A DNA stretch of 64,000 nucleotides from Minisyncoccota bacterium (GTDB taxonomy: Bacteria > Patescibacteriota > Minisyncoccia > Phycocordibacterales > UBA9973). Both the position numbers and the translations under genes were made by a program. The DNA is taken from the NCBI GenBank assembly GCA_041659205.1, contig JBAZYS010000002.1, positions 87,806 to 151,805 on the forward strand. The letters are read 5' to 3'. Positions 3,114 through 54,260 of this stretch are shown piece by piece. Position 1 is the stretch's first letter. Each line of letters starts with the position of its first letter. The notes under the pieces are model-generated. The model was not told the DNA's origin. It did no database searches and saw only the letters and a list, made by a program, of their open reading frames with translations.

Positions 3114-3130
3114 ATAAATTAATTCATAAA

Positions 3131-3224: not shown

Positions 3225-3235
3225 TTTATTTTCTT

Positions 3236-12374: not shown

Positions 12375-12470
12375 AAATATAGTCTTTTAAAAAGCATTGC
12401 GACCAGCTACCGAGCGAGTATAGCAAATTTTCAGCAGAAAATTATGTGCGGTTTTTAAAAGACTATATTT
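12375..12470 (+). repeat. GC-rich miniature repeat family 2, copy 1, enclosed by a 19-bp perfect inverted repeat
   Basis: Core 12394..12451 (GCATTGCGACCAGCTACCGAGCGAGTATAGCAAATTTTCAGCAGAAAATTATGTGCGG) shares AATTTTTCAGCAGAAAAATAT and a GC-rich hairpin with the copies at 54148 and 62386. Flanks AAATATAGTCTTTTAAAAA and TTTTTAAAAGACTATATTT are perfect inverted repeats; the right one overlaps the ruvC stop. Confidence 0.7.
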
Positions 12471-12958
12471 TTATAGTTTTGCCCTTTTAAATGTGCAAAA
12501 GCTGTAATAGCGATGGCAATAGCATCCAATTCATCGTCTGACTTTTTAGAATTATCTATATCCACTAATATTTTTACCATTTTTATTATTTGTTCTTTAT
12601 TTGCTTTTCCATAACCCGTGGTAGCTATTTTTATTTGAGGGGGGGAGGCTTCAAATATTTTTAATCCAGCATTTGTGGCTTCATAAATTACTACCCCGCG
12701 TGCTTCGGCGACGTGCATGACTGTTTTATGATTAGTAGTTAAAAATAAAGTTTCTATCGAAAGAACATCAGGTTTGTATTTTTTTATTATTTTTTTTACT
12801 TCTTCACCGATTAAAAGTAATCGTTCATTAAATTCTAATTTGGCAGAAGTTTTAAAGCATTCTGAAAAAATTACAGCTTCTTTTTTATCACCTTGTTTTT
12901 TCTCTAAGACCGCGACACCGAGGCGTTCATATCCTGGATCTATTCCTAAAATTATCAT
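12455..12958 (-). CDS. ruvC: crossover junction endodeoxyribonuclease RuvC
   Basis: MIILGIDPGYERLGVAVLE with RNase-H-like fold catalytic Asp/Glu. 167 aa. Confidence 0.9.
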   Translation of the reverse strand: MIILGIDPGYERLGVAVLEKKQGDKKEAVIFSECFKTSAKLEFNERLLLIGEEVKKIIKKYKPDVLSIETLFLTTNHKTVMHVAEARGVVIYEATNAGLKIFEASPPQIKIATTGYGKANKEQIIKMVKILVDIDNSKKSDDELDAIAIAITAFAHLKGQNYKNIVF

Positions 12959-15095: not shown

Positions 15096-15318
15096 TTATA
15101 GCATTTGTTGTTCGCCTTATATAGTATAATAGTTTTAAGAGATTAAGCAGAAGGCATTAATCTCTAAGCAATCAGCCACAGGTTATACGAATTTGCATAG
15201 GACGTTTTGGTTACTTTTATTAGTTCACTGGAACCATCCTATAATACTTTGTTACTTTTGGGGCCCAGCTCCGAAAGGATTGTTTAGAGATTAATGCTTT
15301 TTTTATTTGTAAAATTAA

Positions 15319-15420
15319 ACCAAGAATAAAGTTTTTGTCGGTACGGATTTTTTGAAGCTTAAAAAATCCTGAAATTCTCAGCTCGTCAGCTTCGAAACCC
15401 CTTAAAAACTTTTTCTTGGT
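15319..15420 (+). repeat. intergenic palindromic repeat family 1, copy B, enclosed by a 17/18-bp inverted repeat
   Basis: Core 15340..15403 (GGTACGGATTTTTTGAAGCTTAAAAAATCCTGAAATTCTCAGCTCGTCAGCTTCGAAACCCCTTAAAAAC). Flanks ACCAAGAATAAAGTTTTT and AAAAACTTTTTCTTGGT. It sits at the 3' end of pilB. ORF-track ORF 15220..15435 is a translation of this element. Confidence 0.8.
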
Positions 15421-15424
15421 TTTT

Positions 15425-17122
15425 TTACTCTTCATTTAAATCAACGACACTTTGTACTTCTTCGAAAGAAGTAATCCCATTTAGCATTTTTACGAGGCCA
15501 TCTTGGCGCATTGAAAGTATGCCTTGAGCACTCGCTACTTTTTTGATTTCTCTTTCGCTTGGATTTTCTGGCATTATTTTTTCTATAGACTCGTCAGTTT
15601 TTATTGCTTCAAAGATACCAATTCTGCCTTTAAAGCCTGTCATGTTACATTTTTCACAACCAACTGCTGAAAAAAGCTTAAAGGGCACATCTGGATTTAT
15701 ATTATAATTTGAAAGACTTTTTCCTTCAGCTTTAATACTAGCTAAAACACCTCTCATGGTTGCTTCTTCTTCTTTACTTGGAATTTTTTCTTTTTTACAA
15801 AATTGGCAAAGCTTACGGACCAAACGTTGAGCAATAGAAAGTGACAATGCGGAGACTAAAATTTTAGGATTTACACCAAGGTCAATCAGGCGGGGAATAA
15901 CTCCGGCTGCATTGTTTGTATGGAGGGTAGAGAAAACTATGTGACCCGTAAGTGCTGATTGCACCGCAATCTCGGCTGTTTCTTTGTCGCGGATTTCTCC
16001 GACCATTACCACATCTGGGTCCTGACGAAGAGCTGAACGCAAGCCCTCGACGAAAGTGTATCCTTTCTTCATGTCAGTTTGGGTTTGAGTGATACCTACT
16101 AAATGATATTCAACAGGGTCCTCAATCGTTATAATTTTTATTTCTGGGGAATATATTTTTTTCAAAAAGGCATAAAGAGTAGTGGTTTTTCCTGATCCAG
16201 TCGGACCAGTGACGAGAATTAATCCATTTGGTTTTGATATTTCTTGTTGGATAACCGAAAAAAGAAAAGGTTCAATTCCTATTTCTTCAAGTGGCACTTG
16301 GATTGATTTTGGGTCCAAGATTCTCATGACGATTGATTCACCATAAGATCCAGGAATAAGTGAACTACGAATACTTATTTCGTCTTTTCCTTCTGTGATA
16401 CTAAAACGTCCATCCTGTGCTATTTTGGATGTTAATTTCATTCCTGAAAGAAGTTTTATTCTTGAATTTAACAAATGATAAACATCTGAACCGAAAAATA
16501 AAACATCAATCAAAATTCCGTCCAAACGAAGTCTGAGCCTGCCTCTATCTTCCTCAGGTTCAATATGAATATCAGAAGCTTTAATAGCGATAGCCCCAGC
16601 AAGAATTATTTCTAACATCTTTGAAATTTTATGAATTTTATTTTCTTTCAAGGCTTCCGTAATCATTATTTCAATGTCTTTCATTTTGTGAATCTTCTGA
16701 GCTGTTTCTCTTAAAACTTCTCCAGAAATATCTAATCCTCCAATGGTTGAACTTTCTGCCATTGAAATTTCTTTATATCTTTCCCAGACCTTGTTTATAC
16801 TAGCGGAAGATGCCATATAAAAAGTTGGTACGAGGCTGAGCCTTTCCATGTCATCTTTTAGTCTTTTTATCAAATCGTCAGAAGGGGAACGCAAGGCAAT
16901 AAAAATATTTTTTCCGAAAAGTTTAAAAGGGGCAGCATTTAATTCTCTGCAGTCCTTTTCTGAAATTGCACGAAGAGCCTCATTGTCTATCCCTAAACGA
17001 TAGAGATCAATATAAGGGAGACCATATTTTGATTCTGCCAGGGTGGCTACCAGCTGCTCCTCTTCTTGTTTATGCAAATCTTCGAGTTGTCTATTTTGTT
17101 TTTCTTCATCAAATAAAGGCAT
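15425..17122 (-). CDS. pilB: type IV pilus assembly / type II secretion ATPase (PilB/GspE family)
   Basis: GspE N-terminal domain, Walker A LVTGPTGSGKTTTLYA, C-terminal tetracysteine CEKC... Confidence 0.85.
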   Translation of the reverse strand: MPLFDEEKQNRQLEDLHKQEEEQLVATLAESKYGLPYIDLYRLGIDNEALRAISEKDCRELNAAPFKLFGKNIFIALRSPSDDLIKRLKDDMERLSLVPTFYMASSASINKVWERYKEISMAESSTIGGLDISGEVLRETAQKIHKMKDIEIMITEALKENKIHKISKMLEIILAGAIAIKASDIHIEPEEDRGRLRLRLDGILIDVLFFGSDVYHLLNSRIKLLSGMKLTSKIAQDGRFSITEGKDEISIRSSLIPGSYGESIVMRILDPKSIQVPLEEIGIEPFLFSVIQQEISKPNGLILVTGPTGSGKTTTLYAFLKKIYSPEIKIITIEDPVEYHLVGITQTQTDMKKGYTFVEGLRSALRQDPDVVMVGEIRDKETAEIAVQSALTGHIVFSTLHTNNAAGVIPRLIDLGVNPKILVSALSLSIAQRLVRKLCQFCKKEKIPSKEEEATMRGVLASIKAEGKSLSNYNINPDVPFKLFSAVGCEKCNMTGFKGRIGIFEAIKTDESIEKIMPENPSEREIKKVASAQGILSMRQDGLVKMLNGITSFEEVQSVVDLNEE

Positions 17123-17159: not shown

Positions 17160-19619
17160 ATGCTTGAAGTAAAAAAAGAGAACAAAAAAACATTGGTATT
17201 ACTGGATGCCCATGCAATCATTCATCGTGCTTATCATGCTCTCCCTGAATTTATGTCTAGTAAGGGTGAACCGACTGGCGCACTTTATGGACTTTCTAGT
17301 ATGCTGATGAAAATAATTACTGAGTTGAAGCCCGATTATATTGTTGCTTGTTATGATTTACCCCACAAAACTTTTAGGCATGATGCTTATGAGGGGTACA
17401 AGGCTGGACGTGCAAAAACTGAGGATGCCCTAATTCTACAGCTAAAAAATTCTCGCCAGATTTTCGAGGGTTTTGGTATTCCAATGTATGATGCTATTGG
17501 TTTCGAGGCAGATGATGTTTTGGGAACAATTGTAGAAAAATATAAAAAAGATAAATATTTAAATATTATTATTGCCTCAGGAGATATGGACACGATGCAA
17601 TTAGTCGACGATAAAAAAGTTCAAGTTTATACTTTGAAAAAAGGAATTAACGATACCATTTTATATGACGAAGATGCGGTGGTAAACCGTTTTCATTTTA
17701 AACCTAAATTTTTACCAGACTATAAGGGCCTTCGTGGCGATCCATCGGACAATATTATCGGCATTAAGGGAATAGGGGAAAAGACGGCTGAAATACTAAT
17801 CACAAATTTTGGAACAATAGAAGAAATTTACAAAAAAATCAAAAAAGATGAGGAGGCTTTCAAAAAAGCAGGCATTAGTCCTCGAATGATTGAGTTGCTT
17901 AAAAACAATGAAGAAGAGGCTATGTTTTCAAAAACCCTAGCGACGATTCGAACTGATGCCCCAATTGGCTTTGAAATACCCACAAAGACTTTTTGGGAGA
18001 GTGCGGACTTAAAAAAAATAGAACAAGTTTTCACCACTTTTGAATTTAGGAGTTTGTTCGGACGTCTTAAAAATTTCTTTGGAAATAATACAGAAAAACT
18101 TGAGAAGAAAGATTCTTTGCCCTACGACGGGCTGCAAAATTCTTCTTCTCAAGTTTTTATGGGACCTCATGACGGGTTGCAGAATCTTTCTTCTCAGATT
18201 TCCCCTAAAAAGTTACAAGAAGCGAGTATTGCTTTGTGGTTAATAAATTCGGATATTTCAAATCCAAAATTGGAAGATGTGTTGATGTTTGCAAATACAG
18301 ATTCTTTTGAAGTAGCTTATGATTATATTTTTAAAAAATTAAAAGAAAACAATTTAGAAAAAGTATATGAAGAAATTGAAAAACCCATCATTCCTATAGT
18401 GAGAGAGATGGAAGACTATGGGATTTTGATAGATAAAAAGTATTTTGAAAAACTGTCAAAAGAATATCATACCGAGTTAGATATTTTAACTAAAAGAATA
18501 TACAAGGAGGCGGGCACAGAGTTTAATATTAATTCTCCTAAGCAGTTGGGTGAAGTTATTTTTGGTAAAATGGGGATACTTCCTCCTGGAAAAAGTAAAA
18601 CAAAAAAAAATGCGAGTGGGGGATTTTCTACGAAAGTTTCTGTTTTAGAAGATCTTGAAGAAGATAATCCAATTATAAAAGAAATATTAGCTTATCGAGA
18701 ATTACAAAAATTACTTTCCACCTATATAGATGTTATACCAAAGATGGTGGGAGATGATGGTCGCCTCCATGCTAAATTTTTGCAAAACGGGACAACAACA
18801 GGTAGATTTTCTTCCCAAGATCCCAATTTACAGAATTTACCAATTAAAACAGAGCTTGGTAAAAGAATTCGAGGCGGATTTATCGCTCAAAAGGGTTACA
18901 AGCTTGCTGCTTTTGATTATAGTCAGATTGAGTTGCGAGTGGCCGCAATGCTCTCCGGAGACAAAAAGATGACCCAAATATTTCGCGAGGGAAAAGACAT
19001 TCATGCTGGAGTAGCCTCTTTCGTTTTTAATGTTCCTCTTGAACAGGTTGATTATGAAATGCGTCGGAAAGCAAAAGTAATAAATTTTGGAATTATTTAT
19101 GGTATGGGAGTTTCTGCTTTGCGGAAAAATCTAGGGGGAGCACGTGAAGAAGCCCAAAAGTTTTATGATAATTATTTTAATCAATTTTCAGGTGTTCGGG
19201 ATTATTTAGAAAATGTTAAAAAATATGCGATGCAGCATCATTTTACAGAAACACTTTTTGGCCGAAAGAGATATTTTCCTAATATAAATTCTAGAATTCC
19301 TTTTTTGAAAAATATGGCGGAACGTACTGCCACAAATGCACCCGTTCAAGGTACGGCAACAGCAGATATAATCAAGTTAGCTATAAGGTATGGGGAAGAG
19401 GATTTAAAAAATGCCGGACTTCTGGAAAAGACTCATTTAGTGCTTCAAATTCATGATGAGCTTGTGTATGAAATTGAAGAAAAAGAATTAAAAAAAGCTG
19501 AAAAGATAATAAAAAATGCGATGAACGGAGTTCTAGAGAGGTCTTTTTTACACTACAAAACGGATATTCCGCTTGAAATCCACTCTGGTTCCGGGGACAA
19601 TTTTATGGAAGTTAAGTGA
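17160..19619 (+). CDS. polA: DNA polymerase I (5'-3' exonuclease + polymerase domains)
   Basis: N-terminal 5' nuclease (LLDAHAIIHRAYHAL) and C-terminal pol A family motifs (RRKAKVINFGIIYG, QIHDELV). Start moved to the ATG at 17160 (MLEVKK...); the ORF-track start at 17043 overlaps pilB. Confidence 0.9.
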   Translation: MLEVKKENKKTLVLLDAHAIIHRAYHALPEFMSSKGEPTGALYGLSSMLMKIITELKPDYIVACYDLPHKTFRHDAYEGYKAGRAKTEDALILQLKNSRQIFEGFGIPMYDAIGFEADDVLGTIVEKYKKDKYLNIIIASGDMDTMQLVDDKKVQVYTLKKGINDTILYDEDAVVNRFHFKPKFLPDYKGLRGDPSDNIIGIKGIGEKTAEILITNFGTIEEIYKKIKKDEEAFKKAGISPRMIELLKNNEEEAMFSKTLATIRTDAPIGFEIPTKTFWESADLKKIEQVFTTFEFRSLFGRLKNFFGNNTEKLEKKDSLPYDGLQNSSSQVFMGPHDGLQNLSSQISPKKLQEASIALWLINSDISNPKLEDVLMFANTDSFEVAYDYIFKKLKENNLEKVYEEIEKPIIPIVREMEDYGILIDKKYFEKLSKEYHTELDILTKRIYKEAGTEFNINSPKQLGEVIFGKMGILPPGKSKTKKNASGGFSTKVSVLEDLEEDNPIIKEILAYRELQKLLSTYIDVIPKMVGDDGRLHAKFLQNGTTTGRFSSQDPNLQNLPIKTELGKRIRGGFIAQKGYKLAAFDYSQIELRVAAMLSGDKKMTQIFREGKDIHAGVASFVFNVPLEQVDYEMRRKAKVINFGIIYGMGVSALRKNLGGAREEAQKFYDNYFNQFSGVRDYLENVKKYAMQHHFTETLFGRKRYFPNINSRIPFLKNMAERTATNAPVQGTATADIIKLAIRYGEEDLKNAGLLEKTHLVLQIHDELVYEIEEKELKKAEKIIKNAMNGVLERSFLHYKTDIPLEIHSGSGDNFMEVK
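18099..18197 (+). mobile_element. in-frame palindromic insertion element within the polA inter-domain linker (encodes ...EKKDSLPYDGLQNSSSQVFMGPHDGLQNLSSQ...)
   Basis: A perfect 16-bp inverted repeat TGAGAAGAAAGATTCT (18101..18116) pairs with AGAATCTTTCTTCTCA (18181..18196). The right half is internally duplicated (18117..18153 resembles 18160..18197). A 51-nt stretch (aligned without gaps) is 45/51 identical to uvrA 24768..24822. Confidence 0.7.
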
Positions 19620-24314: not shown

Positions 24315-26981
24315 ATGAAAACAGAGAAAAATATAGAAAAAATAACAGTAAAAGGGGCACGGACTCATAACCTAAAGAATATAAACGTCGAAATGCCAAG
24401 GAATAAAATGGTAGTTATTACTGGTGTTTCGGGATCTGGAAAGTCATCCCTTGCTTTCGATACTATTTTTGCGGAGGGACAGCGCAGGTATATAGAGTCT
24501 CTCTCTTCTTATGCGCGACAATTTTTAAACCAAATGCCGAAACCAGACGTGGATGAGATTACGGGGCTTTCGCCAGCAATTTCTATTGACCAAAAATCAC
24601 GTTCCAATAATCCTCGTTCAACAGTAGCAACGATTACAGAGATTTATGATTACCTCCGAGTGATGTATGCCCGTATCGGGCATCCGCATTGCCCCGAGTG
24701 TGGAGAAGAAATTAAAAAACTTTCAAATGAAGAAATTTTAAATTTTGTTTTAGAAAAAATAAAGAATTTAGAGAAGAAGAATTTTTTGCCCTACGACGAT
24801 CTGCAGAATTCCTCTTCTCAAGGTCTTAAGAATGGTAAAAGAAAAATTATGGGGGTGGAGTTTGATGAAACCCAAATTAGTATTTTTTCTCCTATTGTTC
24901 GTGGGCGGAAAGGGGAATATTATCAATTACTTTATGATTTACTTGGAAAAGGTTTTGCGGAAATCCGTCTCGATGGAGTGATAAAGAAACTTCGCGAGCA
25001 AATTACCCTTTCTAAAAACAAAAAACATAATATAGATATAATGGTGGATACTTTTGCGGTACATGAATTTAAGGATAGTCCTGAAGTAAGTCGGATGAGA
25101 CTTTCCGAAGCCTTAGAGCATGCTTTAATTGAGTCCGATGGTTTGGTGACGATTAAAATTGCAGATGATGAATTTATTATGTCCGCAAAGTTTGCTTGTA
25201 AGAATGATGGATTTTCTTTTCCAGAAGTTGAGCCTAGACTTTTTTCTTTCAACTCTCCTTATGGAGCATGTCCGACTTGTAATGGGCTCGGGTCAAAATA
25301 TTTTATGGGTGATGAGCCTTGCGATACTTGTCATGGAGCACGCTTGCGTCCTGAAGCTTTAAATGTTTTTCTGGAGGCAGATGTCGTGGGGGAGAAGGGC
25401 AAAGTCAAAAAGAGTAAAGTAAATATTTTAGACCTTGCTTCACTTTCAATAAAAGACGCACATGATTTCTTCAAGAATTTAAAACTTACAGATCAAGAAA
25501 AAGAAATATCTGTTCCCGTGGTGCGAGAGATTGAAGCTCGGTTACAATTTATGTTAGATGTTGGACTTGATTATTTGCAACTTTCACGCAAAGCCAACAC
25601 TCTCTCTGGAGGAGAAGCGCAGCGTATTCGCCTCGCCTCCCAGCTCGGCTCAAGGCTTGTGGGAGCACTTTACGTGCTTGATGAGCCGACGATAGGGCTT
25701 CATCAGCGAGACAATGATAGACTCATAAAAACCTTACAAAACCTTCGTGATTTAGGGAATACAATATTAATTGTGGAGCATGACGAAGACACGATTTATG
25801 CCTCAGATTATATTGTAGATATTGGACACAAAGCCGGAGTACACGGCGGAGAAGTTATTGTTTCTGGCTACCTTGAAGATTTATTAACGGCAAAAAAGAA
25901 TACAAATAATTCTCGAACGCTTGCCTATTTAAGAGAAGAAGCGAAAATTGAAATTCCTAAAAAGCGACGAGAGGCAAAAGGAGTTCTACGGATTGCTGGT
26001 GGAAATATTTTTAACATAAATAATTTAAATGTAGAAATACCTCTTGGGGTGATGACATCTATCACCGGAGTATCCGGTTCTGGGAAAAGTTCTTTTATGT
26101 ATGAAATTCTTTATAAAAATCTTCAAGCTCGTTATGAAAGAAAATACCGCACTGCCAAAGTTTTTAATTGTTCTTCATTTTCTGGAACCGAATATTTATC
26201 TCGCGCTATTTTAATTGATCAATCACCGATCGGCCGGACTCCTCGTTCCAACGTGGCTACTTATACTGGCGCGTTTACCCATATTCGAGATATCTTTGCT
26301 ACGACCGAGGAAGCAAGACTCCGTGGATGGAAAGCAAATCGTTTTTCTTTTAACGTAAAAGGTGGACGTTGTGAAGCTTGCGAAGGAAATGGAGAAATAG
26401 CGGTAGAGATGCATTTCTTGCCGACCGTTTATGTTACTTGTGATGTTTGTGATGGTAAACGTTTTAATAAAGATACCCTCACTGTAAAATATAAAAAGAA
26501 AAATATTTATGAAGTGCTTCGCATGACCGTAGAAAATGGATTAATCTTTTTTAAAGATATTCCTTCTATTTCAGACAGACTTCAAACACTTATGGATGTA
26601 GGCCTTGGTTATCTTGAGCTTGGACAATCCGCAACCACGCTTTCAGGGGGAGAAGCTCAGAGAGTAAAAATATCTAGTGAACTTTATCGTCCACACTTAG
26701 AGAAAACCATTTACCTTTTGGATGAACCGACGGTTGGTTTACATTATGATGATGTTCATAAACTTTTAGAAGTCTTAAATAAATTAGTTTCTAAAGGGAA
26801 TACCGTTGTACTCATTGAACACAATTTGGACATTGTGAAAAGCTCAGATTATATAATAGATATTGGTCCTGAGGGAGGAGTAAATGGTGGTAATATAGTA
26901 GCTAAGGGGACACCAGAAGAGGTGGCTAATAATGCTAAAAGTTATACTGGAAAATATCTCAAAAAGGTTTTACGCAAATAG
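24315..26981 (+). CDS. uvrA: excinuclease ABC subunit A
   Basis: [12 protein letters not shown]-terminus. Two ABC ATPase modules ([20 protein letters not shown]) and zinc fingers. Start set at ATG 24315 ([19 protein letters not shown]); the ORF track gives 24294. Confidence 0.95.
24768..24822 (+). mobile_element. in-frame palindromic insertion element within uvrA (encodes ...[17 protein letters not shown]...), homologous to the polA insertion
   Basis: GAGAAGAAGAATT (24771..24783) and AATTCCTCTTCTC (24807..24819) form a 12/13-bp inverted repeat around TTTTGCCCTACGACGATCTGCAG. It is near-identical at the nucleotide level to polA 18099..18153. Confidence 0.7.
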
Positions 26982-28329: not shown

Positions 28330-28802
28330 TGAAAAAAGAAAACGTTTTAATCTTACATAATATACGAAGCGTCTCCAACGTCGGTGCGATGTTTCGTACG
28401 GCAGACGCAGCCGGAATAAATAAAATTTATTTGACTGGTTACACCCCAGCACCGCTTGATCGTTTCGGTAGGAAAAGAGGAGACTTGGCAAAGTCAGCAC
28501 TCGGTGCTGAAGAATTTGTGCCCTGGGAACAAAAGAAAAGTATTTCTGCACTACTTACTAAATTAAAGAAGGAAAATTTTTTAATTATTGGCATAGAGCA
28601 AGACAAAAAGTCTATTGATTATAAAAAGGTAAAAATTAAACAAAAGAATGCATTCTTGGTGGGTGAAGAGGTGGCTGGAATTTCTAAAGAAAATCTAAAA
28701 AAGTGCGATGTTATTGCTGAAATACCAATGCGTGGGAAAAAAGAATCCTTAAATGTATCTGTGGCGCTGGGGATCGCTTTATTTAGAATATGTAACTTAT
28801 AA
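28329..28802 (+). CDS. SPOUT-superfamily RNA 2'-O-methyltransferase (TrmH/SpoU family)
   Basis: SpoU motifs: LVGEEVAGIS, AEIPMRGKKESLNVSVALGIALF. Confidence 0.8.
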   Translation: MKKENVLILHNIRSVSNVGAMFRTADAAGINKIYLTGYTPAPLDRFGRKRGDLAKSALGAEEFVPWEQKKSISALLTKLKKENFLIIGIEQDKKSIDYKKVKIKQKNAFLVGEEVAGISKENLKKCDVIAEIPMRGKKESLNVSVALGIALFRICNL

Positions 28803-28895
28803 TGTCCGCATAAAATTTTGCTGAATTTTTGCTCAAGACTCGGCCCGTCGGCCTCCGTAGCTATTATAAATTTCATATTCTAAATTATTGGATAA

Positions 28896-28999
28896 GATAA
28901 AGAATAAAGTTTTTAAGGGGTTTCAAAGCTGACGAGCTGAGAATTTCAGGATTTTTTAAGCTTCAAAAAATCCGTACCGACAAAAATTTTATTTTTTAT
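28896..28999 (-). repeat. intergenic palindromic repeat family 1, copy C (reverse-complement orientation)
   Basis: The reverse complement of 28910..28978 reads GGTACGGATTTTTTGAAGCTTAAAAAATCCTGAAATTCTCAGCTCGTCAGCTTTGAAACCCCTTAAAAAC. Imperfect AT-rich inverted flanks. It lies between the convergent 3' ends of trmH-like and mutM. Confidence 0.8.
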
Positions 29000-29001
29000 C
29001 T

Positions 29002-29874
29002 TTACTTCTGATGCACTGAGCAAAAGTGGGCACTACGGCCGTTTACTACTATTCTTTTTATGATGCCCCTACAGCCTATTTTTCTACATTTTTCTCCTGT
29101 GCGTCTGTAGGCTTCGTGGTGCATTTGGAATTTACCTGGCAGGCCATAAATATTTTTATAATCTGACATTGAGTCTCCCCCGAAATCTATACCTTTTTTC
29201 AGTGTTTCTTTTATTGCTTTGAATATTAGTTCTAGCTCCTTTTTGTTGATTTTTGAAACTTTTCGTTCTGGGTGCACACTAGCTCGCCAGAGTATTTCGT
29301 CGGAATAAATATTTCCAATACCAGCGATGATACTCTGATTTATCAGAACTGTTTTTATCTTTCCGTTTGGTTTTTTATTTAATTGCTCATTTAGTTTTTC
29401 TAAAGTGAAATTTTTTTCTAGGGGCTCTGGACCGATATTATTTAGATGTCTTGTGTTATGTGCAGTTTTTGTATCAAGAAGAGTAATCTTTCCAAATTTT
29501 CTTAAATCAGAAAATACTAAATATTTTTTATTAGAAAGGGAAAAAACAACATGGGCAAATTTAATTTTGGGATCCTTCCCATAAAAAAGGTACCCTGTCA
29601 TTTTTAAATGTACGAGTATCGTTTTACTTGCCCCGATATGGCGTGGGCCCCCAGAAAGATTTATCAAAATATTTTTTGCTCGTCTTTCTATAGACAAAAC
29701 TTTTTTCCCTATAATTTCTTTCCTGAATACAGTAAAAAACTTAGGATTAGCAATTGATTCCTTTTGGCGTTTGTCTTTAGTGGACAAATCTGTCCAAACA
29801 TTTGTTATTTTTAGACCTAAAATTGTCTTTTCCAGGCCTCGTTTTGTTGTTTCTACTTCTGGTAATTCTGGCAT
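29002..29874 (-). CDS. mutM: formamidopyrimidine-DNA glycosylase (Fpg/MutM family)
   Basis: N-terminal MPELPEVE catalytic Pro2/Glu3. C-terminal zinc finger CRKIGCRG...C..H. Confidence 0.9.
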   Translation of the reverse strand: MPELPEVETTKRGLEKTILGLKITNVWTDLSTKDKRQKESIANPKFFTVFRKEIIGKKVLSIERRAKNILINLSGGPRHIGASKTILVHLKMTGYLFYGKDPKIKFAHVVFSLSNKKYLVFSDLRKFGKITLLDTKTAHNTRHLNNIGPEPLEKNFTLEKLNEQLNKKPNGKIKTVLINQSIIAGIGNIYSDEILWRASVHPERKVSKINKKELELIFKAIKETLKKGIDFGGDSMSDYKNIYGLPGKFQMHHEAYRRTGEKCRKIGCRGIIKRIVVNGRSAHFCSVHQK

Positions 29875-29956: not shown

Positions 29957-30817
29957 ATGTTAATGAAAAGATTACGATTTATATTATTTATTTTTTCAAT
30001 ATTTTTCCTGGTGCCTCTTTCAAAGAGCCAAGCTAGTGTTGCCGCGCCTATTAAAATTTTATTAGTTCCAGGGCATGATGATGAAGTTTGGGGAGCAAAA
30101 TATAGGAATGTAAAAGAGGCAGATATGAATTTGGCAGTAGCTACCCAGATTTATAATCTCTTAAAGAAAGATAAAAGATTTGATGTCTATGTTACTCGTG
30201 ACAATAATGGTTATACAAAAGATTTTGCAGATTATTTCCCTGCACAAAGAGATAAAATTTTAGCTTTTGAACAAAATGCTAAAAAAATAATGAATAGTAA
30301 TATTTCTAGTGGTAATTTTGTTCAGAAAGAGAACGCACCACATCACACCGTGAGTGAAGACATTGCCTTACGTTTGTATGGTTTTAATAAATGGGCGAAT
30401 GAAAATAAAATAGATGCAGTAGTTCATTTTCATTTTAATGATTATCCGCGTTCCAATAGCCAAAAAATTGGCAAGTACAAAGGATTTGCCATCTATATGC
30501 CAGATGGGCAATTTGTAAATTCTAGGGAAAGTGGACAGCTCGCCGCTAATATTTTTACCCAGTTGCATAAAAAATATGCATCCAGTGACTGGAAACCAGA
30601 AGCAGGAGGACTTGTACCAGACCAAAAGCTCATTGCTATTGGTGCGAATAATACATTGAATGCTTCCGTGCGCTCTGTTCTAATAGAATATGGATATGTT
30701 TATGAAAAGAAATTTAGAACAAAGGCTGCGCGTCTTTCCGCTTATAAAAACATGGCAAGTCTTACCTCAACAGGAATAAAAAATTATTTTTTCCCCAAAA
30801 AAGTTAGCACAAAATAA
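29957..30817 (+). CDS. secreted N-acetylmuramoyl-L-alanine amidase (Amidase_3 family)
   Basis: Signal peptide. LLVPGHDDEVWGAKY...YVTRDNN matches the amidase_3 zinc-binding core. Confidence 0.8.
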   Translation: MLMKRLRFILFIFSIFFLVPLSKSQASVAAPIKILLVPGHDDEVWGAKYRNVKEADMNLAVATQIYNLLKKDKRFDVYVTRDNNGYTKDFADYFPAQRDKILAFEQNAKKIMNSNISSGNFVQKENAPHHTVSEDIALRLYGFNKWANENKIDAVVHFHFNDYPRSNSQKIGKYKGFAIYMPDGQFVNSRESGQLAANIFTQLHKKYASSDWKPEAGGLVPDQKLIAIGANNTLNASVRSVLIEYGYVYEKKFRTKAARLSAYKNMASLTSTGIKNYFFPKKVSTK

Positions 30818-30923
30818 ATAAAAAGATTTTTGCCGGTACGAATTTTTTGAAGCTTAAAAAATTCTGAAATTCTCGGCTCGTCAGCCTCGAAACCCCTTAA
30901 AAACCTTTTTATTTATTTTGTAC
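30807..30923 (+). repeat. intergenic palindromic repeat family 1, copy D, enclosed by a 19-bp inverted repeat that overlaps both convergent stop codons
   Basis: Core 30838..30904 (GGTACGAATTTTTTGAAGCTTAAAAAATTCTGAAATTCTCGGCTCGTCAGCCTCGAAACCCCTTAAAAAC). Flanks GCACAAAATAAATAAAAAG and CTTTTTATTTATTTTGTAC. The left flank contains the amidase stop and the right flank the ruvA stop. Confidence 0.8.
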
Positions 30924-31479
30924 TTAATATTTTTAGTGCCTCACGGATTCTGGTGTTCATGGTTGCGTCAGGGGAGCACTTCTTTAATGCCTCCCGTGCT
31001 TCGTTTTGAGAATAACCTAGTGATTTTAAAGCCTCGAGTGCATCCAATTCTTCTTTAAGGGAACTTTCTCCTTTATCTTCTCCTATCTTGTCTCGCAACT
31101 CTATCACAATTTTTTCTGCCGTTTTTTTACCTATACCAGATATTTTTGTAAGGTATGAGACGTCTCCAGTCCCAATAGCTTTTTTGAGTGTTTCGATTGA
31201 AGCAATTCCAAGGATTGCGAGAGCCGAGCGTGGCCCAATGCCAGATACATTTATGAGCATTTCAAAGAATTCTAATTCTTCTCGGTCTAGAAAGCCGTAT
31301 AGGTCGAGTGCATCTTCCCGCACTCGGGTATGAATGGAGAGCATTATTTCATCACCGACTTTTTTTACTTTAGATAAAGTGTCTGGAGAGGCACTTATTT
31401 TATAACCAACTCCGCCCGTCTCCACTATTAAGAATTTATCTGTTTTTAATATAATTTTTCCTTTTATGCTTCCGATCAT
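30913..31479 (-). CDS. ruvA: Holliday junction DNA helicase RuvA
   Basis: MIGSIKGKI N-terminal OB domain. Two HhH motifs (GIGPRSALAIL, GIGKKTAEKI). C-terminal RuvB-binding domain. Confidence 0.9.
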   Translation of the reverse strand: MIGSIKGKIILKTDKFLIVETGGVGYKISASPDTLSKVKKVGDEIMLSIHTRVREDALDLYGFLDREELEFFEMLINVSGIGPRSALAILGIASIETLKKAIGTGDVSYLTKISGIGKKTAEKIVIELRDKIGEDKGESSLKEELDALEALKSLGYSQNEAREALKKCSPDATMNTRIREALKILSTK

Positions 31480-31532: not shown

Positions 31533-31784
31533 ATGCCAATAACACAATCAGCTAAAAAAGCAATCCGAAGTTCCCTTCGCAAGAAGGCCTTTAATGATGG
31601 ACGTAAGAAAATAATGAAGGAGGTAATCAAAAAGATTGAGAAAATTGCTAAAACCGACAAGGCTGAAGCTGCAAAAATGCTTTCTTCTGCTTTCCAAGCT
31701 ATAGATAAATCTGCACAAAAAGGTGTTATTAAGAAAAATAACGCTGCTCGTAAGAAATCTCGTTTATCAAAGTTGGTCAAATAA
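31533..31784 (+). CDS. rpsT: 30S ribosomal protein S20
   Basis: MPITQSAKKAIRSSLRKKAFN... Lys/Ala-rich 83 aa typical of S20. Confidence 0.9.
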   Translation: MPITQSAKKAIRSSLRKKAFNDGRKKIMKEVIKKIEKIAKTDKAEAAKMLSSAFQAIDKSAQKGVIKKNNAARKKSRLSKLVK

Positions 31785-31885
31785 AGAATAATATTTTTTT
31801 GGTACAGATTTTTTGAAGCTTAAAAAATCTTGAAGTTTGCTCGCCGTCGCTCGCAAAACCCCTTCAAAATAATATTCTTTATTTT
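31780..31885 (+). repeat. intergenic palindromic repeat family 1, copy E
   Basis: Core 31801..31866 (GGTACAGATTTTTTGAAGCTTAAAAAATCTTGAAGTTTGCTCGCCGTCGCTCGCAAAACCCCTTCAAAAT). Near-perfect inverted flanks AAATAAAGAATAATATTTT and AAAATAATATTCTTTATTTT. The left flank overlaps the rpsT stop. Confidence 0.8.
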
Positions 31886-31894
31886 TATAAATTT

Positions 31895-32158
31895 ATGAAT
31901 CATTTACTTGAATTTTATGGAACTGAGTGCCCACATTGCGTGGATATGCATCAACTCGTGGAGAAGTTAGAAAAAGAAGAAGGAATTAAAGTTGAAGCGA
32001 TAGAAGTTTGGCATAATAAAGAAAATGAAAAGCGTTTACTTGAATTAGACAAGGACCTTTGTGGGGGAGTACCTTTTTTCTATAATACAAAAACAACTAA
32101 ATGGATTTGTGGAGGAGATAGTTACGAAAATCTAAAAGCTTGGGCGCAGGGAAAATAA
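31895..32158 (+). CDS. thioredoxin-fold protein with CPHC active site (glutaredoxin-like)
   Basis: 87 aa. CxxC motif (CPHC) near the N-terminus, typical of small thioredoxin/glutaredoxin-like proteins. Confidence 0.6.
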   Translation: MNHLLEFYGTECPHCVDMHQLVEKLEKEEGIKVEAIEVWHNKENEKRLLELDKDLCGGVPFFYNTKTTKWICGGDSYENLKAWAQGK

Positions 32159-32203
32159 TGCCTTCGGTATTGCTCAGAAAAAAATAAATATACAAAATAA
32201 AAA

Positions 32204-32226
32204 AGCCCCCAGAAGGGGCTTTTTTA
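32204..32226. terminator. bidirectional rho-independent terminator (AGCCCC-CAGAA-GGGGCT flanked by A and T runs) shared by the thioredoxin-like gene and cspA
   Basis: GC stem with A-tract upstream and T-tract downstream, between convergent genes. Confidence 0.8.
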
Positions 32227-32238
32227 TTTGAGTGAATA

Positions 32239-32436
32239 TTACGCGCGTTGTACGTTTGTAGCATTCAATCCTTTTGGTGATTCTTCAGTTTCGAAAGAAA
32301 CAGTATCACCTTCCTTTAACTCGTCAAAAGTTACGCCAACAAGAGAGTTACTGTGGAAGAATAAATCCTTCTGTAGTCCTTCTGCTGTTATAAAGCCGAA
32401 ACCTTTATCAGTGAGTCTTTTTATTGTACCAGTCAT
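32239..32436 (-). CDS. cspA: cold-shock protein (CspA family)
   Basis: GTIKRLTDKGFGFI RNP1 motif and FFH RNP2. 65 aa. Confidence 0.9.
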   Translation of the reverse strand: MTGTIKRLTDKGFGFITAEGLQKDLFFHSNSLVGVTFDELKEGDTVSFETEESPKGLNATNVQRA

Positions 32437-41294: not shown

Positions 41295-44200
41295 TTATTG
41301 TAATGTAGTAGTCGTAGTTTTTTTGCCAGATGGTTGATCAATGACAGTCGTAGTTTTTTTACGGAAAGATTGATCATAGGTGTACTTAGTTAAATATACA
41401 AGTATAAGTACAAGAAGGAGAAGAAGGAGCCATCCGAATAAGTTTGTAGGGAAGAAACCAGCTCCGAAGACATTTGCGCCAAGGAAGTTAAGATTTGTTC
41501 CATCATTCCAAACTTGGGCTGAGACATTTGCACTTACTGATTGAGGCTGACCAGAAGGATCAATATAACTCAAAGTTGCAGGGAAGTTCAAATTTGTTCC
41601 AGCTTTTATGTTATCACGTACTCGTACTCTTACAGTGACTACTCCTTTACCATTTGCTCGAAGAGTTCCGAGGTTGAAGTATAGGGTATTACCAGAGATT
41701 GAGGGATTGCTTGGGTTTGAGAATAGATAATCTACTTCAAGAGGAAGATTCATTTGAAGAGTAAGGTTCGTGATTGAAGCATTCCCGATGTTTTGATAAC
41801 TCACTGTGTAATTTATTTCATCACCCGGTTTTGGCATGGTGTTATCAATCGTAGGAACGATTGGTTGGTTGCGGTCAACAGAAGAGGTGATTAAGACGAG
41901 GGAAGATGGGATAATAGGAGTTCTATTTGTTTGACCACCGACAGTTATTGTCTCAGTATCACTTGCAGAACCGAAAGCATTACTACAAGTTATTTCGTAA
42001 GTCTTACTTGAAGTTAAACTTCCAGTATAGAAGGAGCCTGGACCAATACTTTTTACTCCGGCCCAGCCGACAGATCCGCCTGACGCATTACATGAGGTTG
42101 CATTTGTGGTAATCCAGCGAACAGTTGCAGAACCATTGTAAGCTAGATTTGTTTGATCTGAATAAACTACTACAGTTGGCTGATTACTTATGATTTGTTG
42201 ATTATCTACATTAACAGTTGTAGTAGCATTTGCTTGCTGGCCACTACTGTTTGTACAAGTAATACCGAAGTTTGTTGCATTGGTTAAGTTACCTGTGTAG
42301 AAACTTCCAGAAGTACTTCTGTTTCCAGACCATCCGTTAGTACCATTATTGGCGGAACATGATGTCGCATTTGTAGAATTCCAAATTATTAATGAAGTTC
42401 CATTGTAAGGGACAGAAACTGGATTTGCATACATGGTAACAGTTGGGTATTGAGTTTGGTTGTTTACATATACTGAAGTAGAAGCATTTGCTTGCTGACC
42501 ACTACTATTTGTACAAACGATATCAAAGTTTGTTGTATAGGTTAAGTTTCCAGTATAGAAACTACCGGAAGTACTTTTACTTCCTGCCCATCCGTTTAAT
42601 CCATTTGTACCAGTACAGTAACTTGCGTTTGTAGAATTCCAAGTAACTAAAGAAGTTCCATTATAAGAAATAGAAGCTGGACTTGCGTACATGGTAACAG
42701 TTGGGTTTTGATTTTGATTATTTACATAAACAGTGGCATTGGCACTTGCTGATTGACCAGTGTTGTTTACGCAATTAATAACATATGTAGTTGTACCTTG
42801 TGGTACTACCACTCCTGATCCACTAATTGAGTTACTTCCTGTCCAATAAGCATTACATGAGGTTGCATTTTGGGAAGTCCAAGTAAGAGTAGAGTTACTA
42901 CCTTGCTGAATGCTTGCTGGGTTGGCAGTTAGTTGTACTGTTGGAGCTTGAGTTTGGTTTACGTAAACAGTTGCATTAGCACTTCCTTGCTGGCCAGCAC
43001 TGTTTACACAGTTAATAACATAAGTAGTTGTACCTTGTGGTACTACCACTCCTGATCCAGTAGTGTTTGTATTTGTAGTCCAGTAAGCATTACATGAGGT
43101 TGCATTTTGGGAAGTCCAAGTAAGAGTAGAGTTACTACCTTGCTGAATATTTGTTGGATTAGCAGTTAGTTGAACTGTTGGAGCTTGAGGATTGTAATTG
43201 AAACTAGCATTAACCGTACAATTTGAAGTAATTGCACCTGTGGTAAATGTGTTTCCATTTAAATATCCATTACAACCAGAAACATTATTTATTGAGTATC
43301 CTTGATTTGCAGTTATGTAAAAGGTTGCAGTATTTCCAGAATTAATTTGCTGAGAAGTAGGAGCGATTGATCCACCTGTTCCAGCATTTGTGGAGACGGT
43401 GAAAGTAGTAGGGGCGTTTGGCGCACAGATTGAACCGTTCCAAGAAGAACCATTTGCACATGACGAAGTAGCTGATTTTGTATCTAGAACCGTAGATCCA
43501 TTTCTAAGATTATATATTGTATATGGGTATCCAACATATACTAAAAGAGGGTATGTGTTATTTGCAGCAGTAGAAAGAGTCGCACCTGTGTTTCCATCTA
43601 TCAACATTGGATTTGTAGTATTTGCTGTCGTCCAAGTAGCGCCGGTAACAGTACAAGTGCTTGCACCGGAAGCGATGATACAGCTTGAAGGGGAAATAGT
43701 TAAATTTCCAGTTGCTGGGTTAGGAGGATTTTGTACAAAACTAGCATATACAGTACAAGCAGAATATATCGCGCCAGTATTGTATGTAGTAGCAGTAGTA
43801 ATGTTGTTCAACTGACTACCATTACAACCATAAACTGACCCAGTGTATCCAGAATTTGGAGTTACTGTGAAGTTTGTGGTGTTTCCTGAAACGACTTGCT
43901 GATTTGGGGGAGTAATGTTTCCACCTACGCCTGATCCTGTGGAGGTAACGGTGTAGGTAGAAGGGGCGTTAGGTGTAAAACTAGCATTTACAGTACAGAC
44001 AGCATTTATTGCACCAGTAGTGTATGTCGTAGGAGCTGTAATATTATTTAATGCAATACCATTACATCCAGAAACTGAACCAGTGTATCCGTAGTTTGGA
44101 GTTACTGTGAAGCTTGTAGTACTTCCTGCATTAACGTTCTGAGTTCCTAGGGGAGAGATAGTTCCGTTGTTGCCTGCGTTTGAAGTGACTGCGTAGGTAG

Positions 44201-44567
44201 TAGCCTGACACGTAGGAGTCATAATGCTTCTGATATTTAATGGATTGGTTCCGTAAGCATTTACAATTACCATTCTGAAATAGTAAACAGTGTTTTCGGA
44301 TAGTCCAGTAACAAGCTGTTCAACATGAGATAGAGAATTAAAATGTTGTACGGCTGTATGTATTCCTAATCCTTGTTCGACATTATTATAAGTAGTGTCG
44401 TATTCGAAATGGACATCGAATGGCGGAGTGCCGCTTGTGATGTCACCAGTGAAATAAGCACTATTACAAGTGAGTGCAGATGCGGGAGTCGCAAATGCAA
44501 AAGACCCGAAGAGTGTTACCACACTCAACATTAATCCGACCGACAATAATTTTATTTTGTTATTCAT
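41295..44567 (-). CDS. giant cell-surface protein (1090 aa): signal peptide, tandem Ig/PKD-like Thr/Ser/Asn-rich domains, C-terminal TM anchor
   Basis: Signal peptide. At least two ~95-aa near-identical repeats (APTVQLTANP..IQQGSNSTLTWTSQNATSCNAYWT...TTYVINCVN) and 2-3 repeats of PTVTMYA.P.S..YNGTSL..WNSTNA. C-terminal LLLLLLVLILVYL. Near-identical DNA repeats are present. Confidence 0.7.
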   Translation of the reverse strand: MNNKIKLLSVGLMLSVVTLFGSFAFATPASALTCNSAYFTGDITSGTPPFDVHFEYDTTYNNVEQGLGIHTAVQHFNSLSHVEQLVTGLSENTVYYFRMVIVNAYGTNPLNIRSIMTPTCQATTYAVTSNAGNNGTISPLGTQNVNAGSTTSFTVTPNYGYTGSVSGCNGIALNNITAPTTYTTGAINAVCTVNASFTPNAPSTYTVTSTGSGVGGNITPPNQQVVSGNTTNFTVTPNSGYTGSVYGCNGSQLNNITTATTYNTGAIYSACTVYASFVQNPPNPATGNLTISPSSCIIASGASTCTVTGATWTTANTTNPMLIDGNTGATLSTAANNTYPLLVYVGYPYTIYNLRNGSTVLDTKSATSSCANGSSWNGSICAPNAPTTFTVSTNAGTGGSIAPTSQQINSGNTATFYITANQGYSINNVSGCNGYLNGNTFTTGAITSNCTVNASFNYNPQAPTVQLTANPTNIQQGSNSTLTWTSQNATSCNAYWTTNTNTTGSGVVVPQGTTTYVINCVNSAGQQGSANATVYVNQTQAPTVQLTANPASIQQGSNSTLTWTSQNATSCNAYWTGSNSISGSGVVVPQGTTTYVINCVNNTGQSASANATVYVNNQNQNPTVTMYASPASISYNGTSLVTWNSTNASYCTGTNGLNGWAGSKSTSGSFYTGNLTYTTNFDIVCTNSSGQQANASTSVYVNNQTQYPTVTMYANPVSVPYNGTSLIIWNSTNATSCSANNGTNGWSGNRSTSGSFYTGNLTNATNFGITCTNSSGQQANATTTVNVDNQQIISNQPTVVVYSDQTNLAYNGSATVRWITTNATSCNASGGSVGWAGVKSIGPGSFYTGSLTSSKTYEITCSNAFGSASDTETITVGGQTNRTPIIPSSLVLITSSVDRNQPIVPTIDNTMPKPGDEINYTVSYQNIGNASITNLTLQMNLPLEVDYLFSNPSNPSISGNTLYFNLGTLRANGKGVVTVRVRVRDNIKAGTNLNFPATLSYIDPSGQPQSVSANVSAQVWNDGTNLNFLGANVFGAGFFPTNLFGWLLLLLLVLILVYLTKYTYDQSFRKKTTTVIDQPSGKKTTTTTLQ

Positions 44568-45703: not shown

Positions 45704-45775
45704 GCCCTCATAGTTTAATGGATAGAATGCGAGCTTGCGGAGTTTGCGATGTAGGTTCGATTCCTACTGAGGGCA
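45704..45775 (+). tRNA. tRNA-Arg-like (anticodon loop TTGCGGA, anticodon GCG), close paralogue of tRNA-Arg(TCT) at 52505
   Basis: 72-nt cloverleaf. Acceptor GCCCTCA/TGAGGGC. T-arm GTAGGTTCGATTCCTAC. Anticodon stem has 3 Watson-Crick + 2 G-U pairs, so it may be divergent or a pseudogene. Confidence 0.55.
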
Positions 45776-45811
45776 CTAGCACGAAAGAAGCCAACTGCTT
45801 GGCTTTACGTA

Positions 45812-45900
45812 GGAAGCGAAAAGCTTTTACCTATTTTTTTATAAAAAATGTAAAAGGTATACTGTTCTCGTAGAGAAAGATTTCCTACTGAGGGCACAAA
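45812..45900 (+). repeat. conserved ~85-bp module downstream of tRNA-Arg, ending in a direct repeat of the tRNA 3' end (CCTACTGAGGGCAC)
   Basis: About 85% identical to 52636..52725. Contains AAAAGGTATACTGTTC (-10-like TATACT). The final 14 nt exactly repeat the 3' end of this locus's tRNA. Confidence 0.6.
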
Positions 45901-52504: not shown

Positions 52505-52576
52505 GCCCTTGTAGTTCAATGGATAGAACGAAGCTCTTCTAAGGCTTTGATGTAGGTTCGATTCCTACCAAGGGCA
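52505..52576 (+). tRNA. tRNA-Arg (anticodon TCT)
   Basis: GCCCTTGTAGTTCAATGGATAGAACGAAGCTCTTCTAAGGCTTTGATGTAGGTTCGATTCCTACCAAGGGCA. Anticodon loop CTTCTAA. Confidence 0.85.
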
Positions 52577-52635
52577 CAAAATAAACGAAGTGTATTTCGG
52601 GCCCGAGAACAAGCAAATTTATTTGCTTGTGTGTA

Positions 52636-52725
52636 GAAATCGAAAAGCTTTTCCTTATTTTTTTTAAAAAAATGGAAAAGGTATACTGTTCCTGTAAGGA
52701 AAGATTACCCTACCAAGGGCACAAA
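52636..52725 (+). repeat. conserved ~85-bp module downstream of tRNA-Arg(TCT), ending in a 19-nt exact repeat of the tRNA 3' end (CCTACCAAGGGCACAAAAT)
   Basis: Homologous to 45812..45900. Contains AAAAGGTATACTGTTC. It is followed by two mutually exclusive hairpins (GTAAAGCA-AGTAAAC-TGCTTTAC or GCAAGTAA-ACTGCT-TTACTTGC) before the rluA-family gene. Confidence 0.6.
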
Positions 52726-54128: not shown

Positions 54129-54147
54129 CAAAAGCGAAGCTTTTGTG

Positions 54148-54213
54148 AGTCCGCAGCGCGACGGCGCGAGGAGCGGGCCGCGAAATTTTTCAGCAGAAAA
54201 ATATTTGCGACCC
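54148..54213 (+). repeat. GC-rich miniature repeat family 2, copy 2
   Basis: AGTCCGCAGCGCGACGGCGCGAGGAGCGGGCCGCGAAATTTTTCAGCAGAAAAATATTTGCGACCC. The hairpin GCGC-GACG-GCGC covaries with GCCC-GACG-GGGC in copy 3. It sits between tRNA-Leu and tRNA-His. Confidence 0.7.
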
Positions 54214-54260
54214 AAATGATTAGCATTTTTATGCTTTTTTTGTTATAACTATTCATACAT

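Follow-up and report, generated by a model that had tools for sequence, protein, structure and literature searches.

A conserved structured repeat at gene ends of Paceibacteria carries the stop codons of convergent amidase and ruvA genes in its closing stem

Between the convergent genes for an amidase and RuvA, in a stretch of 64,000 nucleotides (nt) from a Minisyncoccota bacterium (assembly GCA_041659205.1, contig JBAZYS010000002.1, positions 87,806 to 151,805 of the forward strand; hereafter the window), lies copy D of an element that we term family 1. Our data firmly establish family 1 as a new, widespread and structured repeat of the ultra-small Paceibacteria (candidate phyla radiation), whose arms overlap stop codons and whose presence or absence is polymorphic at orthologous junctions; the unit is ~110-130 nt long and specific to Paceibacteria. 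As to its role at this site, we propose with moderate confidence that copy D may act as a bidirectional transcript-end hairpin, carried on an element that was gained between the amidase and ruvA stops and whose stem later grew into both reading frames. Almost nothing is known about transcript ends or the spread of repeats in the tiny genomes of the candidate phyla radiation; the 64-kb window holds five family 1 copies and four of a sister family (1b), and family 1, found in dozens of species-level genomes, offers a testable candidate RNA motif.

Two convergent genes end within the arms of a folded element

The amidase gene (open reading frame (ORF) 29957-30817, plus strand; Pfam Amidase_3, E 5.7e-17) ends with a TAA at 30815-30817, and ruvA (ORF 30913-31479, minus strand; RuvA_N, HHH_5 and RuvA_C domains) has its stop at 30913-30915. 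The parts of copy D are as follows, all given on the plus strand.

30807-30825, plus strand: left outer arm, GCACAAAATAAATAAAAAG, which holds the amidase TAA (30815-30817) and the last codons S, T and K
30826-30834, plus strand: left inner arm, A30826, TTTTTG and CC, with 30897-30904 as its partner
30835-30896, plus strand: core of 62 nt, a three-way junction in the order GG, TAC, P2, TGAAA, P3, ACC
GG at the core start with CC at 30895-30896, plus strand: closing pairs of the core helix
30840-30864, plus strand: P2 hairpin, GAATTTTTT-GAAGCTT-AAAAAATTC, with a near-invariant A/U stem and a palindromic AAGCTT loop
30870-30891, plus strand: P3 hairpin, TTC-TC-GGCT-CGTC-AGCC-TC-GAA
30897-30904, plus strand: right inner arm, TTAAAAAC, from sequence and fold
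30905-30923, plus strand: right outer arm, CTTTTTATTTATTTTGTAC, complement of the ruvA stop (30913-30915) and of the last codons S, T and K

As the original prediction held, 19-bp inverted arms carry the stops of the two genes: 18 of the 19 positions are complementary, and the remaining one, C30808 opposite A30922, becomes a G.U pair when read on the minus strand. The conserved core had been described as a loop of ~80 nt; it is indeed conserved, but it measures 62 nt, and the inner arms pair as well. The outer arms are 79 nt apart, the inner TTTTTG and TAAAAA segments are paired in fold predictions, and a repeat finder returned an inverted repeat with 35-nt arms, 86% complementary (30797-30831 with 30899-30933). 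A30826 faces C30904 in an A.C mismatch that is kept across the subfamily of copy D, and the base of P2 carries a G-C to A-U change that is compensatory relative to most family copies. The sequence 3′ of the arm is TTAATATTTTT, with no clean U tract. Both proteins end in S-T-K-stop, encoded within the arms as AGC ACA AAA TAA and AGT ACA AAA TAA.

Fold prediction for the 117-nt region gave far better structures than shuffled sequence on both strands, with -31.9 kcal/mol (z -5.96) for the plus strand and -42.1 kcal/mol (z -7.32) for the minus strand; none of 200 shuffles folded as well in either case. Six clusters of inverted repeats of the quality of copy D (19-nt arms, at most one mismatch, loop of 20-120 nt) occur in the window, whereas 10 block shuffles contained no such cluster. 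The shuffled folds and the inverted-repeat counts together rule out that the arms are a chance pairing in A/T-rich DNA.

Family 1 is a widespread repeat with a covarying core

Copy D had also been assigned to a repeat family, an assignment borne out by five window copies that have a common architecture and score 91-99 bits with a covariance model (R1).

3124-3236, plus strand: copy A, between a 460-residue gene (plus) and an R3H-domain gene (minus), convergent
15317-15429, plus strand: copy B, right behind the stop of the gene for a type II/IV secretion ATPase (15425-17122, minus)
28890-29005, minus strand: copy E, beginning at the fpg (MutM) stop
30807-30923, plus strand: copy D, between the convergent amidase and ruvA genes
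31778-31890, plus strand: copy C, between rpsT and a small thioredoxin-like gene (trx), co-directional; the left arm includes the rpsT stop

This corresponds to a density of ~1 per 13 kb in the window. The arms of the five copies differ. Copies B and E have nearly identical cores, with one difference, and share an AGCT/AGCT variant of P3 that was not seen in other genomes.

Species-representative genomes were searched with a 28-nt core pattern in which P2 was fixed as constant. It matched more than 115 stretches and, among the matches listed, all were from Patescibacteria (Paceibacterota, Nomura-, Yanofsky-, Vogel- and Yonathbacteria). The closest genome locus among the matches listed (L014, Paceibacterota; loci are given as L numbers) encodes a RuvA that is 89% identical over the 117 residues in the locus and a thioredoxin-like protein that is 95% identical to that of the window. 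The same pattern had no match in the IMG/VR viral contigs, on which ground a viral origin was rejected. A search of the whole window against Rfam 15 at the gathering threshold returned seven tRNAs only, and permissive Rfam scans (E up to 10 or 1) of copy D, an extended copy and a copy of the related family 2 gave generic plant microRNA hairpins far below threshold, or nothing. We found no description of family 1 in the searchable literature on this bacterial group, terminators, repeats, structured RNAs or the core sequence. Many element-bearing third-party assemblies (L001, L002, L004, L010 and others) are titled 'MAG TPA_asm: uncultured Candidatus Saccharibacteria'; the products of two window genes have counterparts in L010 with 57-69% identity, as is also seen with Paceibacterota and Nomurabacteria assemblies, and the Saccharibacteria label of these assemblies looks generic or wrong.

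Conservation and covariation were counted on 116 aligned copies (alignment A2). In 109 of 117 copies the core has a length of 62 nt; it runs GG-UAC, P2 (GGAUUUUUU-GAAGCUU-AAAAAAUCC), junction UGAAR, P3 and ACC-CC; the junction nucleotides are invariant, as is a palindrome, TTTTTTGAAGCTTAAAAAA, with A/T tracts on its flanks. P3 comprises nine pair positions, a CGNC loop and a 2x2 internal loop that reads UC/UC, or GA/GA on the complementary strand, and all nine modelled pair positions covary across the family: pair 50-73 is UA in 105 copies and CG in 10; 51-72, UA in 100 and GC in 15; 52-71, CG in 65, UA in 32 and GC in 13; 57-65, GC in 64 and CG in 45; and 58-64, CG in 57 and UA in 54. Cells changed on both sides of pairs numbered 297, against 105 +/- 15 in shuffles, with a clear peak relative to slid registers. 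Among copies found with model R1 there are P2 variants that still pair, UUUUUC-GAAGCUU-GAAAAA (L027, L008) and U7-AAGCUU-A7 (L063), and some copies have extra hairpins inserted at fixed points, in the P2 loop, the P2/P3 junction or the P3 loop. By eye, no convincing -35/-10 arrangement of a promoter was found inside the core.

The closing stem is long and A/U-rich, and its sequence varies from copy to copy with pairing always kept. It has a median of 27 Watson-Crick pairs in a stricter arm alignment and at least 17 in a first, more permissive one; the outcome feared in the original prediction, a core without arms or with non-complementary arms in relatives, was seen in none of ~120 copies. Across the family, conservation fades within ~17 nt of the core, and the outer arm positions have no conserved bases. 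There are nonetheless subfamilies whose arm sequence recurs at different loci and in different genomes (56 pairs match at 16 or more of 22 positions vs 6 pairs expected). In one extended subfamily (L080, L081, L096, L115) a 17-bp outer helix, TTTGAATTACGAAACTC / GAGTTTCGTAATTCAAA, and a 6x6 internal loop are both conserved; its hairpins span ~150-190 nt and tend to lie in larger intergenic regions.

The P3 module is common to families 1, 1b and 2. In family 1b, a P3-like hairpin (CUCG-NNNN-CGUC-NNNN-CUC) is combined with another A/U hairpin, whose loop is UGC or UAC; two or three of the four window copies have long copy-specific arms. Family 2 is a larger related family (~140 nt), in which P2, CUGGCGAAGCUUCGCCAG, presents the same AAGCUU loop on a G+C stem and an extra hairpin is added.

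~12380-12478, minus strand: family 1b, overlapping the end of ORF 12455-12958
28790-28877, plus strand: family 1b
54133-54223, minus strand: family 1b
62377-62469, minus strand: family 1b
L069 2876-3025, and in L120, L131, L134, L136 and L146: family 2, at rpsT-trx or amidase-ruvA junctions, once inverted

The element is present, absent or inverted at orthologous junctions

Comparison of orthologous amidase-ruvA junctions, proposed in the original prediction as a check, revealed the element to be absent, present in either orientation, or replaced by other hairpins. A family 1 element lies right after ruvA in only 2 of 80 metagenomic ruvA loci (L116, L137); it is oriented as in the window in L116 and the opposite way in L137 and in the genome locus L079. 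Unrelated plain hairpins (G+C) occupy the junction in L117, L120, L130 and L069, and a family 2 element that in L146. In relatives with convergent amidase and ruvA genes, RuvA almost always ends ...EALKILGGK-stop and the amidase ...NYFF(G/S/A)K-stop. The two stops are 0-10 nt apart in L118, L132, L133, L134, L135 and L141, and back-to-back GK-stop ends give a short natural palindrome, for example GGAAAATAG/TTATTTTCC in L135.

These junctions bear on how copy D arose. One earlier suggestion was that it represents an insertion into a pre-existing terminator loop; because the stops of relatives lie so close together there is no loop to insert into, and the element, with its own ~20-bp arms, is present or absent as a whole, so we abandoned this view. 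Given presence and absence and either orientation at orthologous sites, the element appears instead to have been acquired between the stops of the two genes, either repeatedly or with inversion. STK-stop tails on both proteins occur in the window alone, relatives having GGK-stop and GK-stop, and we infer from this that the stem of copy D was later extended outward into both genes.

A second junction, rpsT-trx, gave a similar range of states. In ten relatives the genes are 2-13 nt apart and no hairpin separates them; family 1 is present in seven genomes, in one orientation throughout; elsewhere there is family 1b, family 2 (once inverted) or a plain hairpin. In the seven orthologous family 1 copies the arms are kept paired via changes on both sides in 12-16 pairs. 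The outer arms at rpsT-trx are alike (AAGTTnGAATTT...) around different core families, which suggests core exchange within persisting arms. At a third junction, trmH-fpg, the orientation of the element is flipped between the window and L063 on one side and L005 on the other. When filled and empty sites were compared at rpsT-trx and amidase-ruvA, no consistent direct repeat at the element borders, no target-site duplication and no sharp insertion border were found.

Features that fit a proposed bidirectional transcript end

Family 1 copies lie at gene 3′ ends. In ORF-based classes, where E is the element and a plus marks a flanking gene on the same strand as GGTAC, we counted 37 +E+, 27 +E-, 10 -E- and 7 -E+ contexts, the last class being partly an artefact of small genes misassigned by ORFs (rpsT, for example, was lost to a shadow ORF). 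Of 80 left genes, 42 have their stop codon inside the arm, as have 26 of 48 right genes; among the 27 converging pairs, 8 have both stops there. By these counts the stop-in-arm layout of copy D is typical of the family. The outer arms are symmetric in composition across the family, the 5′ one being rich in A and the 3′ one in T. Of 118 copies, 63 have five or more consecutive T on the right and 55 have five or more consecutive A on the left. Bidirectional terminators carry flanking A stretches and T stretches (PMC1852404), and very long stems can make strong terminators, stem length rather than loop length having set the antitermination resistance tested (PMC10325885).

The description of copy D as a compact bidirectional terminator is therefore plausible as regards its position between converging stops, its A/T-symmetric arms and its place at gene 3′ ends. 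It fails as regards the canonical short G+C stem: family 1 does not have the short G+C-rich stem and 3-8-nt loop of intrinsic terminators, and a canonical-terminator consensus scan detected none of the family copies. It did detect one other site, so ordinary terminators are also used by this genome.

32195-32229: canonical bidirectional terminator, AAATAAAAAAGCCCC-TTCT-GGGGCTTTTTTATTT, flanked by the thioredoxin-like gene and, in convergent orientation, a 65-residue ORF (32239-32436, minus strand)

If copy D does end transcripts, P2 and P3 would fold first, as RNA polymerase leaves either gene. Their folding would close the junction and bring the distant arms together, and the U-rich 3′ arm would then zip onto the A-rich 5′ arm to give a helix of ~27-35 bp running into a U tract, which would terminate transcription and/or leave a nuclease-resistant 3′ end. 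The converging gene could be served by the same events, since the arms form a palindrome and P2 and P3 fold on the complementary strand too. Outgrowth of the stem would have replaced the usual ...GGK-stop tail of RuvA, after which both proteins would end in S-T-K-stop. With the stops inside the stem, the ribosome would not be close behind the polymerase, and termination here would therefore imply uncoupled transcription and translation. That the junction and the P2 loop hardly vary points to a conserved partner, either a protein or the copying machinery, and the element probably spreads as a unit.

As a terminator module, family 1 would be a new construction, in which a folded core nucleates a very long A/U stem; if mobile, it would be an unusual repeat with its centre conserved rather than its ends. 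In copy D, moreover, a nucleic-acid structure appears to have remodelled the C-terminal ends of two proteins (GGK-stop to STK-stop in RuvA).

An extended -10 box, TGNTATAAT, often lies only ~7 nt ahead of the start codon, ATG, of genes that directly follow an element (L012, L031, L049, L100; window 31880-31897). A -10 box so near the ATG suggests leaderless or very-short-leader mRNAs in these bacteria.

Strand preference and alternative explanations

The GGTAC strand runs with the neighbouring genes in 37 co-directional contexts and against them in 10 (p ~1e-4). A replication-strand cause of this orientation was considered and dropped: local GC skew follows gene direction, has no clear bias in converging contexts (16 vs 11) and is inseparable from transcription direction. 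Several features nonetheless favour folding of the complementary strand. P2 base pair 20-44 is G-C in 90 copies, A-U in 6, A.C in 19 and G.U in none, as it should be if the complementary strand is the one that folds. One subfamily has a conserved A.C pair that closes the inner helix. Among isolated arm mismatches, 64 are A.C and 25 are G.U, a difference of only weak significance when the conserved position is left out. The P3 internal loop, read on the complementary strand, is a tandem GA/GA. The complementary RNA is ~4.5 kcal/mol more stable in 103 of 119 copies, mostly via the shared core, and the consensus fold of orthologous copies (-25.7 vs -13.2 kcal/mol) likewise favours it.

These observations weigh against a transcript-end role, as do several others. 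In most co-directional contexts, the strand whose folding the wobble-type evidence favours is antisense to the gene next to it. The stem is A/U-rich with ~90 nt between its strands, unlike canonical terminators, one of which the genome also has. A plain hairpin would suffice to terminate, and termination would leave the conserved core unaccounted for. Patchy presence, orientation flips and arm-sharing subfamilies fit a selfish mobile repeat equally well. Termination by the element is itself something that we infer from sequence.

The main alternative, possible if doubtful, is that family 1 is such a selfish element: non-autonomous mobile palindromic DNA resembling Rickettsia palindromic elements or miniature inverted-repeat transposable elements (MITEs), or moved via single-stranded DNA by a hairpin-recognising enzyme. 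P2 and P3 would then be recognition hairpins, folded in DNA on the strand opposite GGTAC; gene ends would be sites that tolerate insertions harmlessly, and any terminator activity would be a by-product. Presence or absence and both orientations at the same orthologous junctions agree with this, and so do the core variant confined to window copies B and E, the arms common across loci and genomes at 56 pairs where 6 were expected, the cores of different families within similar outer arms at rpsT-trx, and a wobble asymmetry that is independent of gene direction; another palindromic repeat of the window lies in frame inside polA and uvrA (below). However, no transposase or other partner was identified, filled and empty sites differ by no target-site duplication or conserved termini, and the arms are mostly copy-specific, unlike transposon ends. 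The core is moreover extremely conserved over many genera, with invariant junction nucleotides, the orientation is biased 37:10 with flanking genes and constant at rpsT-trx in seven genomes, and viral contigs gave 0 matches.

A broader scheme is more speculative, and we regard it as unlikely. Families 1, 1b and 2 might form a Paceibacteria-wide superfamily of modular three-way-junction 'gene-end cassettes' whose active form would be on the strand antisense to the neighbouring gene, either as single-stranded DNA for a recombinase or transposase (the logic of integron attC sites with conserved and variable parts swapped) or as an antisense RNA bound by a conserved protein. Cores would be swapped in persisting arms, and stem growth would rewrite C-termini.

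Less probable still is a cis-acting RNA domain of the 3′ untranslated region, or an antisense small RNA, in which the junction and the AAGCUU loop would bind a protein or kiss another copy. It would control mRNA stability, processing (for instance through RNase III cutting of the long stem) or transcript pairing, with termination secondary. Long perfect RNA helices are RNase III-type substrates, and the closing stem fits this. The evolution of family 1 is RNA-like, with covarying helices, an invariant junction and optional extra stems; purine-rich internal loops, tandem GA among them, occur on one strand, and the palindromic hexaloop is identical on both. Against this stand the lack of an Rfam family, a better-folding strand that is usually antisense to the neighbouring gene and has no room for its own promoter (11-60 nt to the next gene), and a sporadic presence at orthologous sites that speaks against an essential gene-specific role.

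We give very little credence to the conserved core being a double-stranded DNA signal within terminators, such as a protein-binding site or an uptake sequence, the latter being found in terminators of Neisseria and Haemophilus: the invariant palindrome between A/T tracts, the type II/IV secretion ATPase encoded in the window and the co-option of uptake sequences in terminators (PMC1852404) would suit it, but covariation in P3 and at the P2 base selects within-strand pairing rather than a fixed duplex sequence, and the conserved part sits in the loop here, not in the stem. Known DNA-uptake signals occur about once per kb, far above the density of family 1.

Comparison with known systems

Family 1 is a dispersed gene-end palindrome with an inverted conservation logic, and it departs in defining features from the systems with which we compared it. 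Bidirectional intrinsic terminators are alike in lying between converging stops, in their A-rich 5′ and T-rich 3′ flanks, which give a hairpin and a U tract on both strands, and in possible stop overlap. Their stems, however, are 5-14 bp long and G+C-rich, whereas that of family 1 is ~27-35 bp and A/U-rich, and the family 1 'loop' is a conserved, folded 62-nt three-way junction common to many loci, its terminator role being a proposed one.

The dispersed palindromic repeats (REP/BIME/REPIN, Correia (NEMIS), ERIC, RUP/BOX and Rickettsia palindromic elements) are likewise short, non-coding, multi-copy and patchy, lie in intergenic regions or at 3′ ends and form long transcript hairpins; the Rickettsia elements also occur in a reduced genome. 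In these repeats the arms or termini are conserved and the centre varies, whereas in family 1 the centre is conserved and the arms are largely copy-specific, paired by compensatory change. No GTAG-type motif, terminal inverted-repeat consensus, target duplication or transposase was seen with family 1. Specifically, REP/REPIN are conserved palindromes of 20-40 nt with a 5′ GTAG-type tetranucleotide, often arranged as inverted pairs in genomes that have a RAYT gene, and this tetranucleotide was not found in the family 1 arms; the terminal inverted repeats common to all copies of MITEs and Correia elements have no counterpart, since only subfamilies share arms; and their target-site duplication was not found at rpsT-trx or amidase-ruvA. 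Rickettsia palindromic elements have a consensus along their entire length and can lie in frame within genes; family 1 overlaps last codons only.

Integron attC sites resemble family 1 in favouring structure over sequence, in being imperfect palindromes right after gene ends in fixed orientation to the gene, and in that the best-folding strand is complementary to the sense strand of the gene. Their outer R boxes (RYYYAAC/GTTRRRY) are conserved and their middle variable, the reverse of family 1, whose outer arms, without conserved bases, do not contain RYYYAAC...GTTRRRY core sites. The genes that flank family 1 are housekeeping genes in conserved synteny, not cassettes, and no integrase context was seen.

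The type III hammerhead ribozyme, with its invariant core CUGANGA...GAAA...UH around three stems, has a similar order of closing stem, short junction, hairpin, CUGAA-containing junction, hairpin and AA-containing junction. We rejected a hammerhead reading of the CUGAA...GAAAC junction, as the catalytic positions vary or covary: column 49, which corresponds to G8, holds A or G; column 50, which corresponds to A9, holds U or C, mostly U; and the equivalent of G12 (column 71, the G before AAAC) is a paired base that covaries with column 52. No hammerhead model appeared among the Rfam matches at E up to 10.

Other repeats in the window

A different palindromic repeat occurs at 18071-18159 and 24740-24828, where it is part of the reading frames of polA, at a point separating the exonuclease domain from the polymerase domain, and of uvrA. 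It has arms AAAAACTTGAGAAGAAAGA / TTCTTCTTCTCAAGTTTTT and an inner hairpin GCCC-TACGAC-GGGC, encodes ...LEKK(D/N)(S/F)LPYD(G/D)LQNSSSQ... and has a second partial copy in polA; in its in-frame position it resembles Rickettsia palindromic elements. A 77-nt repeat, 84% identical between 45809-45885 and 52633-52709, lies shortly after the tRNA genes 45704-45775 and 52505-52576 and contains an A/T palindrome and a TATACT box. Finally, several tandem repeats of ~240-258 nt, 77-86% identical, lie at 42198-44145 inside a 1090-residue ORF (41295-44567, minus strand), which presumably encodes a repeat-domain surface protein.

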